From a virus (taxonomy: Duplodnaviria > Heunggongvirae > Uroviricota > Caudoviricetes): a stretch of DNA of 4,346 nt. Below, piece after piece: positions 1 through 4,346 of the stretch. Positions within the stretch are counted from its first letter, which is position 1, and each line of letters opens with the position of its first letter. Below the pieces are notes generated by a model. That model was not told the DNA's origin and did no database searches. It was given only the letters and a program-made list of their open reading frames with translations. A program made the position numbers and the translations under genes. The stretch lies in the IMG/VR virus record IMGVR_UViG_2681813320_000022; one strand, 5' to 3'.

Positions 1-103
1 GAGTTGATGGCTCATGATGTCCCTCTGGGATGCGCTCCGGATGAATATGATGATCTCATATCAGGAACTTGTTCGCACCTTCCTTAGTTAGTGTGGCTTT
101 TAG

Positions 104-355
104 TCAAGTAAGATGACGTCTTGGTCTCGCTGATGCCTGGCGCTCAATCCAGCGATCAATTTCTTCCAGGTTGTAAAAGCATGGACTGTTATCCCATGGC
201 ATACCGTCATGAGCGACATGCTTATATTCCCTTCCTTCCATAAACGATTTTTCCCGGGCCTTTTTTAACGTACCTTTTTTTATTCCTTTCAGCGCAATTA
301 ACTGCTCTTCGGATACCCATTTGCCGGGAGAGACAATCATGATTACTTCGCTCAT
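104..355 (-). CDS. xis: Excisionase-like small DNA-binding protein (Xis / recombination directionality factor family)
   Basis: 83-codon ORF ending in TGA. From the sixth residue (MIVSPGKWVSEEQL...) the protein aligns by eye with lambda Xis: Trp at position 8, basic helix region, and a GREY motif (MEGREYKHVA versus lambda KDGREYLFHE). It lies directly downstream of the exonuclease gene on the same strand and upstream of a probable int start, the canonical exo-xis-int order. The true start may be the internal ATG at 340..338; both candidate starts have weak purine-rich SD. Confidence 0.6.
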   Translation of the reverse strand: MSEVIMIVSPGKWVSEEQLIALKGIKKGTLKKAREKSFMEGREYKHVAHDGMPWDNSPCFYNLEEIDRWIERQASARPRRHLT

Positions 356-384
356 CGATTTCTTTATCTCTTACATCAGACGAG

Positions 385-416
385 CGCCGGTTGCAGAATA
401 CCAGTCACAACCGGCG
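385..416 (-). repeat. GC-rich inverted repeat (9-bp arms CGCCGGTTG / CAACCGGCG, 14-nt spacer) in the exo-xis intergenic region
   Basis: Arms at 385..393 and 408..416 are exact reverse complements. It sits 12 nt downstream of the exo stop and about 30 nt upstream of the xis start. No U-tract follows on the minus-strand transcript, so it is not a canonical intrinsic terminator. Confidence 0.45.
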
Positions 417-427
417 ACAGTTGAACA

Positions 428-2461
428 TTAAGAATCAGCCTGACTCGGGATCAGTTTTTGCCAGATAACTGAAACGTATTTTGCCTGGTAACGGGCGTCA
501 TCAAGTGCATTATGGCGCTCACCTTCGAATGGAATAGCCGTTCTGGCATCGAAGTCTATGGCTTTCCCCAGCTCAACGATTGTGCGTACATCGCGATCGT
601 TGTAGTAACGCCACGGGCAGGGGATCCCCTGCCGTTCGTATGAACGGCGCAAAATCGTGTTGTCGAAGTTGGCTCCATTTCCCCAAACCTGAACAAAAAA
701 TTCACCGGAGTTTTCGTCGATAAATTCTCGCAATTGTAACAGTGCATCATCTAACGGGATTTCATCGGTCATAATGGCAGATTGCGCTTCGCGTGATTGC
801 TTAAGCCACCATTTAATGGTGTCCCGATCAATGACTCCGCCAGCAGTTTCCAGATCGATAGTCTTACTAAATTCCGGTCCCATATCTCCGGTTTGCGGAT
901 CGAAAAATATTGCACCTATTGAGATGATCGGGGCATCAGGATTTTTTCCCATGGTTTCAAGGTCGATCATTAGATGGTCACACGTCCTGCTGGTGGATGT
1001 GATTTCGTGATGACTGTTCACCTTAATTGGGTGATCTGCCGTCTCGCCAGTTTCATTATCGCTATTGTGATGCTGATTGCCGCCAGTGTTCTCCTTGTGT
1101 GGATGTTCAGCGCCTTCCATTTCCTCCGGATCATCTTCCTGAACTTCAACCTGATACTCTTCATCGAATGTTTCTTGGTATGTTGCGTCGCCCATCACCG
1201 CGCCACAATCAGGGCAGTTGCCGCCGCCGGTCTGACCGCAGGCGGTGCAGACTTTTTCCACTTCCTGTTGCGCTACTGGTTCAGGCTGTTTCGTTTCTGG
1301 CTCGTTTTGTAACGCATTTGGACTGTTTTGTTCCGCTTTTTGGTAGTTCCGTTCCGATTCATGCTGGTTCTGGTTCACAGAATCGCGGGTCTGGAGCCCC
1401 TTAACCCATTTCGGATCATTCGGGTCACTAATCCCTTCAACAAATTCACCACGTGATGCAGCAAGCAACTTATCGGCGTCAGGCTGGCTGATATTGGCTG
1501 CCTGCATAATTTTGTTTACTTCGTCAGCGGTAACTTTTATCGGCTCTGGTTGTTCTGAATCTTCAGCGGTATCTACATTTTGCGGTAAGCCCGTGTATGT
1601 GCCATTTTTTCGGGCAAAATATTCTTCTTTTGTGATTTCAGTGGCGCCAGCAGCCAGTGCCTTATCCAGACCAGAGAGTTTGTTTGCGCGACCGTATTTT
1701 TCTCCGTCCTTATCTGCGAAGAGGAAATAGAACGGCCCCTCACGCTCTACAGATGGTTCAGCTTCCGGCGCGGTTTCATTTTTTGGGATATCAGATACCT
1801 CAGTTTCCACTGCATCAGTTTGTGTTTCTGATGACTGGAGAACATCAACAGTGCCCAGGTCTGTTTCTTCATTCTCAAACACGCCCTTTGTCGTCAGGTA
1901 TTCGCAGATATATTTGTTCAGTGCTACGGGATCTTTGTGAATGTCGATCGGACGCTCACGGACAAGGCCAAAAATAGTTTGGCGGTCGTAGCGAAGGGCA
2001 TCAGGCTGTTTGCGCATTGATGCCGAGATACGCTTCCAGTCTTCGCGGTCGTTGTCGATAACTTCTTTTTTTGCCCAGCGATGGATGCTGCCGTCAATGT
2101 TTCCGGCATCCACATCACTAGGCCAGAGAGCGTAGGCCAGTTCGTCATCCAGTGTTTTCCATGTCTGCTTGTATTCGCGATGAATGGCAGCAATGACCGG
2201 GCTGATTTTTCCTGTTGAATTTTCAGTGTACTGTTGATTGGCTCTGGCGCGGGCGAGATCAACAACAGACGTGTATTTTCCGGTTTCCTTGCGTTCACCT
2301 TCGCGACGTTTTTTCCAGATGCGCATCTCTGCCTGAATTTCGGGCCATTTAGCACCAGGAATACATTTATGCTTAACCCACCCAATGGCGTGCAACTTAA
2401 GCTCCGGATACGGGTTATTCCCCTCTGAACAGGCGCGTAAGGACTGGCAAAACGCCCGCAA
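428..2461 (-). CDS. Prophage exonuclease: C-terminal DnaQ-like DEDDh 3'-5' exonuclease domain, central CxxC-x7-CxxC zinc ribbon, acidic/His-rich linker, N-terminal domain of unknown function
   Basis: Uninterrupted 677-codon frame ending in TAA at 430..428. All DEDDh motifs are present in order: Exo I MIDLET (D500/E502, nt 956..964), Exo II VWGNGANFD (D600, nt 662..664), Exo III HNALDD (H650 nt 512..514, D655 nt 497..499). Zinc ribbon CTACGQTGGGNCPDCG at nt 1205..1249. The annotated start at 2461 is TTG; the real start may be internal (TTG at 2395 with GGAG SD, or ATG at 2326), so the 5' end is uncertain. Confidence 0.8.
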   Translation of the reverse strand: MRAFCQSLRACSEGNNPYPELKLHAIGWVKHKCIPGAKWPEIQAEMRIWKKRREGERKETGKYTSVVDLARARANQQYTENSTGKISPVIAAIHREYKQTWKTLDDELAYALWPSDVDAGNIDGSIHRWAKKEVIDNDREDWKRISASMRKQPDALRYDRQTIFGLVRERPIDIHKDPVALNKYICEYLTTKGVFENEETDLGTVDVLQSSETQTDAVETEVSDIPKNETAPEAEPSVEREGPFYFLFADKDGEKYGRANKLSGLDKALAAGATEITKEEYFARKNGTYTGLPQNVDTAEDSEQPEPIKVTADEVNKIMQAANISQPDADKLLAASRGEFVEGISDPNDPKWVKGLQTRDSVNQNQHESERNYQKAEQNSPNALQNEPETKQPEPVAQQEVEKVCTACGQTGGGNCPDCGAVMGDATYQETFDEEYQVEVQEDDPEEMEGAEHPHKENTGGNQHHNSDNETGETADHPIKVNSHHEITSTSRTCDHLMIDLETMGKNPDAPIISIGAIFFDPQTGDMGPEFSKTIDLETAGGVIDRDTIKWWLKQSREAQSAIMTDEIPLDDALLQLREFIDENSGEFFVQVWGNGANFDNTILRRSYERQGIPCPWRYYNDRDVRTIVELGKAIDFDARTAIPFEGERHNALDDARYQAKYVSVIWQKLIPSQADS

Positions 2462-2480
2462 AAAACTCTCGAGGGCAAAG

Positions 2481-2651
2481 GTGAAGAAACCTGCTGTGGT
2501 TGATCCGGACCTTATCTGGTCATCACCTGACGGAGAAATACGTCGCTACGACAGTCGCCTAAACATAATCTGTCGCGAGTGCCGGAAGAGCGAAGTTATG
2601 CAGCGCATACTGGCTTTCTATCAGGGTAATTTTCAGGACGTGGCGCAGTGA
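2481..2651 (+). CDS. Small hypothetical protein (57 aa from GTG; frame is open back to ATG 2385, which would give 88 aa)
   Basis: GTG at 2481 is preceded by GAGGG (2471..2475) with a 5-nt spacer. The TGA stop (2649..2651) overlaps the GTG start of the next ORF (GTGA at 2648..2651), a translational-coupling arrangement. The ATG at 2385 lacks an SD and would overlap the 5' end of the exo frame on the opposite strand. Confidence 0.4.
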   Translation: MKKPAVVDPDLIWSSPDGEIRRYDSRLNIICRECRKSEVMQRILAFYQGNFQDVAQ

Positions 2652-3004
2652 GTGCACCGGCAACCATTCTTGATATGTGCTGTGGCAGCCGCATGTTCTG
2701 GTTCGATAAGTCTGACGAACGGGCGATATTCAGCGATATCAGAAAAGAAGGATACACATTACGCAATGGGAGACGCTTGATTATCAGCCCTGACATTATC
2801 GCAGATTTTCGTGCATTATCATTTGCAGACGCATCTTTTTCGATGGTTGTATTAGACCCTCCGCATCTTGAGAGTGTTGGTGATAACGCCTGGATGGGAA
2901 AGAAATATGGACGGCTGAATAAAGATGCCTGGCGTGATGATTCGCGACAGAGATTTAAAGAAGCCTTTCGGGTGTTGAGGCCGCACGGCGTTCTGATTTT
3001 TTAA
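2648..3004 (+). CDS. SAM-dependent DNA methyltransferase-like protein (motif I then motif IV, gamma-like order), short and probably truncated or interrupted
   Basis: 118-codon ORF with motif I-like ILDMCCGS (nt about 2669..2692), catalytic motif IV DPPH (nt 2855..2866) about 60 aa later, and a RVLRPHGVLIF strand typical of the Rossmann methyltransferase fold. It stops at TAA 3002..3004, after which the same frame is open for 29 more codons to TAA 3092..3094. No C-terminal target-recognition region is present. Confidence 0.55.
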   Translation: MSAPATILDMCCGSRMFWFDKSDERAIFSDIRKEGYTLRNGRRLIISPDIIADFRALSFADASFSMVVLDPPHLESVGDNAWMGKKYGRLNKDAWRDDSRQRFKEAFRVLRPHGVLIF

Positions 3005-3237
3005 TGGAATGAAACGCAAATACCGGTAAGCCAGATTCTGGCACTGACAGACAGAAAACCTGTTATCTGTCAACGAACAGGGAAAAAACGATAAAACCCA
3101 CTGGATTATTTTTATGAAAGAGGCATCCAGTGAGTAGATTCGTAAGGCTACAGATACGTATATCTGAATAATTAAATTCAGTTCTGTAAATAAAATTTAA
3201 TCCTTAACCGGATGGATTTCTGCACCCTCAGAACATC

Positions 3238-3266
3238 AGGAGGCCGCCCGAAAGGGCGGTAGTGAA
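3238..3266 (+). promoter_or_regulatory. Structured ribosome-binding site: AGGAGG, then a 6-bp GC stem with GAAA tetraloop, then 7 nt to the ATG
   Basis: AGGAGG at 3238..3243; stem CCGCCC (3244..3249) / GGGCGG (3254..3259) with GAAA loop (3250..3253); ATG at 3267. Linear SD-to-ATG spacing is 23 nt; with the hairpin folded it is about 7 nt. Confidence 0.45.
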
Positions 3267-3377
3267 ATGCGAAAGTTCAAAATTATTATTGAAACGGGAA
3301 TAGCTGGTGGAGATTTTGAGGATGTATTCGAAGTGGACGATGACGCAACACCTGAGGAAATTCATGACGGAGCATAA
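3267..3377 (+). CDS. Small acidic protein, 36 aa (MRKFKIIIETGIAGGDFEDVFEVDDDATPEEIHDGA)
   Basis: ATG start served by the structured RBS above; TAA at 3375..3377. Eleven of 36 residues are Asp/Glu. The frame stays open for 23 further codons after the TAA, up to TGA 3447..3449. Confidence 0.4.
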   Translation: MRKFKIIIETGIAGGDFEDVFEVDDDATPEEIHDGA

Positions 3378-3441
3378 GAAATTTTCTTTAACTACTGCAA
3401 TTACTCATACCACGAAATAAAAGACGATGAGGAAGAACAAA

Positions 3442-3618
3442 GTGGCTGATTTTTGTTCAGCTAAATATAACATCAGTTTTGAAGAGCGGGATGAACTATT
3501 AATGGACTATGGTGAGTTACGCGGTGGAAGTGCTGCTGATGTCGAATCCTAGCGTGATGACTATGAAGCGGGAAAAACTCCGGTCGAAGCATATTGTGAT
3601 GAGTGGGGCGATGAATGA
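3442..3618 (+). pseudogene. Small acidic ORF with an in-frame TAG at 3550..3552: 36 codons from GTG 3442 (41 from ATG 3427), then 22 open codons to a TGA that overlaps the next start
   Basis: GTG 3442 is preceded by GAGGAAG with a 6-nt spacer. After the TAG the frame has no stop and no internal start for 22 codons and ends in an ATGA overlap with the ATG at 3615. This is either a nonsense-interrupted gene or a 36-41 aa gene followed by a chance open frame. Confidence 0.3.
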
Positions 3619-3902
3619 GCGAGATTAATTATCAGGAAGGGCATGAAACGGCGGGGCAAGCAAAACCAGTGGCATGGCGATATCGCTACGTGAAAAAAGG
3701 CGTTACGGACTTTCAGGGGAAGTAGTGGTCTGGTGACTGGAAATATGTACCGAAAAAAGAGGATTGTAACGACAGGCCGAACTATCAAATTCAGGCCTTA
3801 TTCACTGCCTCACCAGTCCCAGTTACATCAGAAGAACTGGTTAAAGCTGTGCACTTTTATGAACAACTAAAACGCGAAAATCCACCAACATCCGGCAACT
3901 AG
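3615..3902 (+). pseudogene. Hypothetical protein gene with an in-frame amber at 3723..3725 (36 codons, TAG, then 58 open codons to TAG 3900..3902)
   Basis: ATG 3615 overlaps the upstream TGA (ATGA). The 58 codons after the TAG have no in-frame ATG, GTG or TTG. They read as ordinary mixed protein (WSGDWKYVPKKEDCNDRPNYQIQALF...), whereas the alternative frame ORF at 3745..3870 is Lys/Arg-rich as expected for an out-of-frame read. Confidence 0.4.
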
Positions 3903-4145
3903 ATTAATGGATTAACTATGTCGGTTAAACGACCAGCCAACTGAAAAAGCGGAAACCTGATTACAGGTTGCCAGATAAGGCAATGAGCTACCTGGCGCGG
4001 AACGGACTGATAAGTATGGGGAATGTTTTACGATGAACCTTTAGACTAAAGAGTTTGTAACGCTATGTAAGTGATTTTTTCTGGTTTAGATATTTATATG
4101 TCCGGCCAAATTGAGGTGTGTTTAAATGTAATTGCACATTGATTG

Positions 4146-4152
4146 TAGGAGG
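4146..4152 (+). promoter_or_regulatory. Strong Shine-Dalgarno (TAGGAGG) for the ORF starting at 4157
   Basis: TAGGAGG at 4146..4152, 4-nt spacer, ATG at 4157..4159. Confidence 0.5.
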
Positions 4153-4156
4153 AATA

Positions 4157-4252
4157 ATGAAAAACGCATTGCAGTTTTTGTTTGTTGCGTTCTGGTTGTT
4201 CGCATCATGTATGCCCATCATCTTCACAGCGGTAATGACTCCAACTTATTGA
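4157..4252 (+). pseudogene. 5' fragment of a gene encoding a protein with a hydrophobic N-terminus (MKNALQFLFVAFWLFASCMPIIFTA), disrupted by IS1 insertion
   Basis: Strong SD plus ATG. The first 24-25 codons (4157..4230) are host or prophage sequence; from 4231 the frame continues into the IS1 terminal inverted repeat and stops at TGA 4250..4252 inside IS1, so the native 3' portion is displaced. Confidence 0.45.
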
Positions 4253-4346
4253 TAGTGTTTTATGTTCAGATAATGCCCGATGACTTTGTCATGCAGCTCC
4301 ACCGATTTTGAGAACGACAGCGACTTCCGTCCCAGCCGTGCCAGGT
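4231..4346 (-). mobile_element. IS1 insertion sequence, right-end inverted repeat plus 3' part of insB (partial; continues beyond the window)
   Basis: 4231..4253 GGTAATGACTCCAACTTATTGAT is the IS1 terminal inverted repeat. The following 93 nt match, from memory of the well-known IS1 sequence, the reverse complement of the IS1 right end (...CTGCATGACAAAGTCATCGGGCATTATCTGAACATAAAACACTATCAATAAGTTGGAGTCATTACC). Confidence 0.9.
4246..4346 (-). CDS. insB: IS1 transposase InsB, C-terminal end (partial; 5' part lies outside the window)
   Basis: The minus-strand reading ends ...[29 protein letters not shown] with its TAA stop at 4248..4246 inside the terminal inverted repeat, as in canonical IS1. Confidence 0.8.

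Follow-up and report, generated by a model that had tools for sequence, protein, structure and literature searches.

A probable Trp-to-amber pseudogene of a 58-codon lambdoid early-region gene in a Qin-type cryptic prophage of Escherichia coli

The stretch of DNA analysed here, 4,346 nucleotides of IMG/VR virus record IMGVR_UViG_2681813320_000022 (hereafter the window), carries at 3442..3618 a reading frame that is interrupted by an in-frame TAG and whose final TGA overlaps the start codon of the next open reading frame (ORF). Our reading, to which we assign a probability of roughly 0.93, is that this is a pseudogene in which a tryptophan codon of a 58-codon early-region gene of lambdoid (Qin/Rac/Stx-type) phages has become an amber codon within the Qin cryptic prophage, with the ATGA overlap at its end persisting as a vestige. 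This reading rests on homology to an intact gene family, a sense codon at the corresponding position in relatives, the fixation of the stop and the decayed state of the genes on either side.

Translated from the in-frame ATG at 3427, the frame (3427..3618) reads MRKNKVADFCSAKYNISFEERDELLMDYGELRGGSAADVES*RDDYEAGKTPVEAYCDEWGDE* (asterisks, stop codons), the residues just before the TAG being ...GGSAADVES whether the start is placed at this ATG or at GTG 3442. Translation bears out the description given in an earlier sequence-only reading of this DNA, namely that the frame from GTG 3442 is broken by TAG at 3550..3552 and terminates in a TGA overlapping the ATG at 3615, and also its statement that no start codon follows the TAG: ATG, GTG and TTG are all absent from the 21 codons that come after it. 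The 22 further codons that it counted are found if the TGA (3616..3618) is included, the sense codons (3553..3615) numbering 21. An open stretch of this length is not beyond chance, the probability of 21 stop-free codons being ~ (61/64)^21 = 0.37, and the reality of the feature therefore rests on homology. Coordinates are collected in Table 1.

Table 1 Coordinates of the interrupted 58-codon frame, its neighbours and associated signals in the window
Feature	Position	Strand	Remarks
5' part of the probable pseudogene	3442..3549	+	GTG start and 35 more sense codons; sole part still translatable; phrog_519 match
Nonsense codon TAG, where the 58-aa protein has Trp37 (TGG)	3550..3552	+	TGG/W37 in intact homologues
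Stranded 3' part of the probable pseudogene, 21 codons (RDDYEAGKTPVEAYCDEWGDE) and TGA	3553..3618	+	Most conserved part of the family; no in-frame start
ATGA stop/start overlap with the next gene, from the intact operon	3615..3618	+	Junction identical in relatives
Upstream neighbour, DUF7167 pseudogene, TAA at 3375..3377	3267..3449	+	PGAP "internal stop"; Pfam PF23768; 8-nt overlap of its end with the 58-codon gene
Downstream neighbour, phrog_660 / ead-region pseudogene, TAG at 3723..3725, broken 3' end	3615..4036	+	PGAP "frameshifted; internal stop"
Shine-Dalgarno-like GAGGAAG, 6 nt 5' of GTG 3442	3429..3435	+	Anti-SD duplex predicted at -6.3 kcal/mol, among the best ~8% of positions in the window
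Shine-Dalgarno-like GAGTGGGG, 6 nt 5' of ATG 3615, within the 3' end of the upstream frame	3601..3608	+	Anti-SD duplex predicted at -7.6 kcal/mol, among the best ~3% of positions in the window
Patch in which 7 of 11 differences from L004, the closest intact allele, fall (TGG -> TAG among them)	3542..3570	+	Alignment of 1,062 nt

When the stop is replaced by W, the window frame matches the PHROG family phrog_519, of unknown function, over residues 2-58 (E=3e-13; an intact homologue gives 4.5e-23); no Pfam model matches the 58-aa protein. The homology to the intact protein (RefSeq WP_000753060.1; YP_009907879.1, gp14 of phage ArgO145) is collinear and full length, with identities of 83-95% to the closest relatives (P0001, at 95%, and P0005) and as low as 59% across the aligned set. 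By tblastn the family reaches 198 phage records, Stx2a phages and ArgO145 among them; the records come from Escherichia, Salmonella, Klebsiella and others. The intact gene, in phages that retain it, lies between a DUF7167 gene and an ead-region gene, and the window copy occupies the same place with the same 8-nt and 4-nt (ATGA) overlaps. These overlaps are common to strain CRE1493, the Stx phage ArgO145 and phage vB_EcoS-689R5; ArgO145, a functional phage, has the arrangement as gp15, gp14 and gp13, and a metagenome contig (L005) shows the same gene order and overlaps. The CRE1493 counterpart (~92% DNA identity) comprises a DUF7167 protein of 60 aa, the 58-aa WP_000753060.1 and a third gene annotated "frameshifted; internal stop". 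At the ATGA junction itself, the sequence GATGAATGAGCGAG is identical in L002, in ArgO145 gp14/gp13 and in vB_EcoS-689R5.

Tryptophan stands at the position of the TAG in 12 of 12 aligned intact homologues, and the codon is TGG in each of the five read as DNA (L002, L004, L005, L006 and ArgO145, L059). The TAG thus arose by a G-to-A nonsense change in the codon for Trp37 and, because relatives have TGG, is not a conserved recoding site. The proposal that the frame had once extended through the TAG finds full support, the intact homologues having both the Trp codon and the same ATGA junction. The alignment of 12 homologues also defines a conserved core, the invariant segments D40-P47 and A50-G56, which lies wholly 3' of the TAG. 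Interrupted at codon 37, the window copy is without an uninterrupted C-terminal core (W37, D40-P47, A50-G56) and, unlike the intact 58-aa protein, cannot make it; it is therefore a pseudogene derived from the phrog_519 family and not a functional member. We propose that in one Qin lineage Trp37 changed from TGG to TAG within a cluster of seven substitutions in 29 nt. Ribosomes starting at GTG 3442 would then end at the TAG via RF1 after 36 residues, yielding a peptide that would lack the conserved core DYEAGKTPVEAYCDEWG, and the 21 downstream codons would be translated at no more than background read-through. With ribosomes stopping 62 nt upstream and the downstream gene dead, the ATGA would no longer couple anything.

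Natural length variants occur within the family. Among natural variants of the 58-aa protein, P0003 and P0037 show a duplication, with DDYEAGKTPVEAYC present twice, and a deletion that lies between FEAW and AEAW. Such changes point to slippage or to recombination involving the gene's short internal repeats (3541-3560 and 3583-3602 of the window).

The Shine-Dalgarno motif and the alignment with homologue starts identify GTG 3442 as the true start. The GAGGAAG motif also lies 5' of the start codon in intact homologues, and GTG 3442 aligns with homologue starts that are ATG in most cases; L004, L005 and L006, the intact alleles closest to the window, themselves begin with GTG. The ATG at 3427 was rejected as a start, having no Shine-Dalgarno (-0.9 kcal/mol) and no counterpart in homologues. 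A simple scan of the + strand found no promoter-like or terminator-like site from 3442 to 3615, so that the genes look like parts of a single transcription unit. Besides the overlap, the start at 3615 would have some initiation potential of its own, conferred by GAGTGGGG; on account of this motif, a strict need for coupling is not demonstrated even in the intact form. Two overlapping ORFs, one on the + strand (3509..3628), which is equally open in the intact L004, and one on the - strand (3473..3592), have no supporting homologue and were treated as chance.

Both genes flanking the 58-codon frame are broken as well. At the stop in the DUF7167 gene, L002, L005 and ArgO145 have AAA, changed to TAA in the window, and at 3723 the CAG of an intact 119-aa homologue in phage vB_EcoS-689R5 has become TAG; the 3' end of this downstream ORF is divergent and broken. 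Two relatives, L004 and L006, carry both neighbour stops yet keep TGG in the 58-codon gene, from which it follows that this gene was hit after both of its neighbours. The downstream flank of L004 is that of the window (ISNCY-type transposase, flxA). Later lesions have accumulated within the TAG lineage itself: in L019 the TAG has become TAA, in P0028 one nucleotide is deleted at the TAG, the downstream gene has acquired indels, and P0032 and P0039 are further frameshift and fusion variants. The pattern of lesions is one of stepwise neutral decay.

Upstream of this cluster, an AGGAGG Shine-Dalgarno sequence (3237-3242) lies 24 nt before the ATG of the DUF7167 gene at 3267, and between the two is a stable hairpin, GCCGCCC-GAAA-GGGCGGU (3243-3260); the segment 3228-3275, which includes it, folds at -16.9 kcal/mol (z=-3.5). 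The sequence of the hairpin region (3237-3269) is conserved in the aligned intact homologues. On this folding prediction, the hairpin could bring the AGGAGG near the DUF7167 start.

The genomic setting is that of a cryptic prophage. Positions 81..4346 of the window are 100% identical to E. coli chromosomes. In one of these, NZ_CP144928, the gene order begins with rspA, rspB, integrase and excisionase and continues with a 3'-5' exonuclease gene and a DUF977 fragment, each without its N-terminus, a 118-aa methyltransferase, the DUF7167 gene ("internal stop"), an unannotated gap and a hypothetical gene ("frameshifted; internal stop"), ending with IS1, an ISNCY transposase remnant, ydfW, flxA and ydfV. 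In strain B-1109 the same segment lies within a fuller element that also has ydfD, dicB, ydfC, ydfB, ydfA, dicA, dicC, a ydaT-like gene, relBE and hokD. The window is, on this comparison of gene content, evidently a remnant of the Qin-type cryptic lambdoid prophage that adjoins rspB in E. coli. Qin has been described as differing greatly between strains and as prone to mutation (PMC6379469; see also PMC3105296). Around the 58-codon gene, independent lesions comprise the truncated exonuclease and DUF977 genes, the TAA in the DUF7167 gene, the TAG and frameshift in the downstream gene, IS1 and the ISNCY remnant.

Several details of this remnant can be placed on the window. At 2402-2411, where flanking homology segments overlap by 10 nt, lies a deletion joint: a minus-strand 3'-5' exonuclease gene (Rv2179c-like domain, N-terminus missing) here abuts the C-terminal DUF977 fragment, and ~4.6 kb of the B-1109 element (ydfD, dicB, ydfC, ydfB, ydfA, dicA, dicC and the ydaT-like gene) is missing. 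The 118-aa ORF annotated as a "class I SAM-dependent methyltransferase" (2648-3004) stops at TAA 3002-3004, and the frame onward reads WNETQIPVSQILALTD...; followed to ~3095, it is suggestive of a further premature stop and, beyond that, of a frameshift in a poly-A run. RefSeq annotates the 118-aa protein as intact (WP_001310834.1), and its match to Pfam Methyltransf_11 is sub-threshold only. At the other end of the window, homology to the IS-free relatives L001 and L004 ends at 4230 and an IS1 end starts at 4231 (4231-4346), annotated in L003 as IS1A; a small ORF (4158-4252) extends into the IS1. The same TAG pseudogene allele is carried by PV340562.1 (L120), deposited as "Escherichia phage PhiR42_1, complete genome" and derived from ECOR13. 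With its truncated DUF7167 call and adjacent mobile-element and transposase genes, this deposited genome looks like a cryptic-prophage relic of the present kind rather than a viable phage.

The distribution of the TAG allele was followed with a 55-nt probe centred on the A of the TAG, which seeds only on sequences having that A. The allele is present in 506 of 5,426 complete E. coli genomes, always as a single chromosomal copy, and nothing is annotated beneath the match in any of the 506; the same probe with G in place of A had no match in the 5,426 genomes. A search with the whole ORF returned 1,871 genomes, ~500 at >=95% identity (the TAG lineage) and ~1,370 at 80-95%; among the matches listed, the latter alleles all have a "hypothetical protein" CDS annotated over the stretch. 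The TAG allele also occurs in 42 IMG/VR contigs and in one Shigella flexneri genome. With an identical allele in all of these sources, the TAG is not a sequencing error. The IMG/VR copies fall into several flanking sub-haplotypes, with only one synonymous polymorphism (3516 G/A) and one TAA copy within the ORF; as several sub-haplotypes share the TAG, it is older than their diversification. The TAA copy, in L019 (IMG/VR 2558860472_000008), has its change at the equivalent of window position 3552, consistent with there being no selection for an amber-specific stop. PGAP leaves the ORF without annotation in TAG-bearing genomes, and the pseudogene call therefore rests on the present comparison.

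One observation, taken alone, speaks against a pseudogene. The 21 codons after the TAG differ from intact alleles by two synonymous changes only, which could hint at continuing constraint. Two synonymous differences are, however, to be expected after a recent nonsense mutation, so that they are no sign of ongoing translation, and because there is almost no polymorphism anywhere in the ORF, variation in the TAG lineage is too low for a dN/dS comparison to reveal constraint.

The persistence of the allele raises another explanation, that the truncated 36-residue peptide, VADFCSAKYNISFEERDELLMDYGELRGGSAADVES, is itself functional, the stop having been selected either as a neofunctionalising truncation or for the loss of a full-length protein that harmed the host. 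The allele does persist in 9% of complete E. coli genomes and in several sub-haplotypes, its start codon and Shine-Dalgarno are intact, and three adjacent genes each have a point nonsense mutation and have not been deleted. Such persistence is nevertheless what would be expected of a neutral relic that is passed on vertically and stays at one place in the chromosome. The one block that the family strongly conserves is lost with the truncation, and the derivatives P0039 and P0032 are disrupted further, 5' of the TAG. We regard a functional truncation as very improbable.

The stop itself did not arise as an isolated change. Seven substitutions fall within 29 nt, a clustering with P ~1e-6 under simulated random placement: where L004 reads GCT GAA GCA TGG CGT GAT GAT TAT GAA GCA, the window reads GTC GAA TCC TAG CGT GAT GAC TAT GAA GCG. 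The closest intact alleles, L004, L005 and L006, differ from the window over the whole of the patch. The window haplotype with a sense codon at 3550 was found nowhere in 5,426 complete E. coli genomes, IMG/VR, GTDB species representatives or JGI metagenomes, all non-TAG matches in these collections being unrelated chance matches in GC-rich genomes. Conversion by the gene's own internal repeat (3583-3602) was considered and rejected, since three of the seven changes are toward the repeat against ~2.3 expected (counted by hand). The patch would be a short stretch imported from a divergent allele that has not been sampled, or else the product of one complex mutation, and either origin leaves the pseudogene verdict unchanged.

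The sequence-only reading had also raised the possibility that the frame still extends through the TAG by suppression. In its full form this holds that the TAG is decoded, through programmed or leaky read-through or an amber suppressor, so that full-length protein is made and ribosomes reach the ATGA to be coupled to the 3615 ORF. The post-TAG frame is indeed open, with synonymous differences only; two in-frame stops in the gene cluster are TAG; and automated callers have placed Gln at these TAGs on short public contigs (P0002 and P0004). The Gln, however, comes from the genetic code used by the gene caller. P0002 and P0004, which have Q at the stop, were considered as TAG-to-CAG revertants and rejected: the contig DNA reads TAG, so that the Q derives from the caller's choice of code, and neither translates to the query under table 11. 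The caller picked a TAG-reassigned code on short contigs that carry several in-frame TAGs.

The contigs concerned are public Logan and ENA sequences on which in-frame TAGs are called as Gln: L007 (calls at 205-399 and 396-725), which corresponds to window 3220-4230 save for 2 substitutions, and L008 (289-519), which corresponds to 3076-3656 save for 1 substitution and a 24-nt deletion. The read-through calls on them are P0002, P0004 and one 109-aa call spanning two TAGs.

In E. coli, termination at UAG proceeds through RF1; amber suppressors are normally absent from wild strains, and spontaneous read-through amounts to roughly 10^-4 to 10^-3. The locus offers nothing to set against this: ARAGORN found no tRNA gene in the window, L001 or L003, and no Rfam family was found at the gathering threshold. 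Also against suppression are the restriction of the TAG to one lineage, the Trp in 12 of 12 aligned intact homologues, the TAA (and not TAG) that stops the neighbouring DUF7167 gene, and the one copy in which TAG has changed to TAA; against coupling is the state of the downstream ORF, itself a truncated and frameshifted pseudogene (CAG to TAG at 3723, broken 3' end). The sequence-only reading had named a separate promoter and ribosome-binding site for the 3615 ORF, together with non-conservation of 3553..3614, as evidence against its view; these gave a divided answer, with no promoter between 3442 and 3615, the Shine-Dalgarno-like GAGTGGGG in place and two synonymous differences over 3553..3614. 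Decoding of the TAG is, on balance, very improbable, slightly more so than a functional truncation. Equally hard to credit is a combined proposal in which low-level yet biologically meaningful read-through takes place at both TAGs, 3550 and 3723 (for example by near-cognate tRNAs or in suppressor strains), the module being conditionally expressed, and in which, separately, the patch is a templated multi-nucleotide mutation or a micro-conversion from an unsampled donor.

The frame resembles cases of phage TAG reassignment (genetic code 15) or amber suppression in having in-frame TAGs followed by an open, homologous frame and in attracting Gln calls from pipelines. It differs from them in that the host, E. 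coli or Shigella, uses the standard code, relatives have TGG and CAG at the stops, the adjacent gene is stopped by TAA and there is no suppressor tRNA at the locus. The ATGA is likewise similar to those of translationally coupled phage and bacterial operons, the 4-nt overlap being conserved in functional phages with this module; in contrast to working coupling, the ribosome in the window would stop 62 nt short of the junction and the gene beyond it is a pseudogene, which leaves the overlap vestigial. The closest likeness is to the nonsense pseudogenes of the cryptic ("grounded") lambdoid prophages Qin, Rac and DLP12, which decay, as here, by point nonsense mutations, frameshifts, deletions and IS insertions. 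The window shares the Qin locus and neighbourhood (rspB, integrase, excisionase and exonuclease, then ydfW, flxA, ydfV and relBE), and both genes flanking the 58-codon frame are labelled "internal stop" by PGAP. Unlike the usual pseudogenes of cryptic prophages, the 58-codon ORF is wholly unannotated in TAG-bearing RefSeq genomes, and its stop arose within a tight cluster of seven substitutions and not as an isolated point change.

The feature is thus an ordinary pseudogene of a kind already known, and its biological weight is small: it is one more decayed gene in a cryptic prophage known as a pseudogene mosaic. In TAG-bearing RefSeq genomes the ORF lends itself to annotation as a WP_000753060.1-family pseudogene, and the spurious "recoded" P0002 and P0004 in public protein collections are a caution for screens for stop-codon reassignment.
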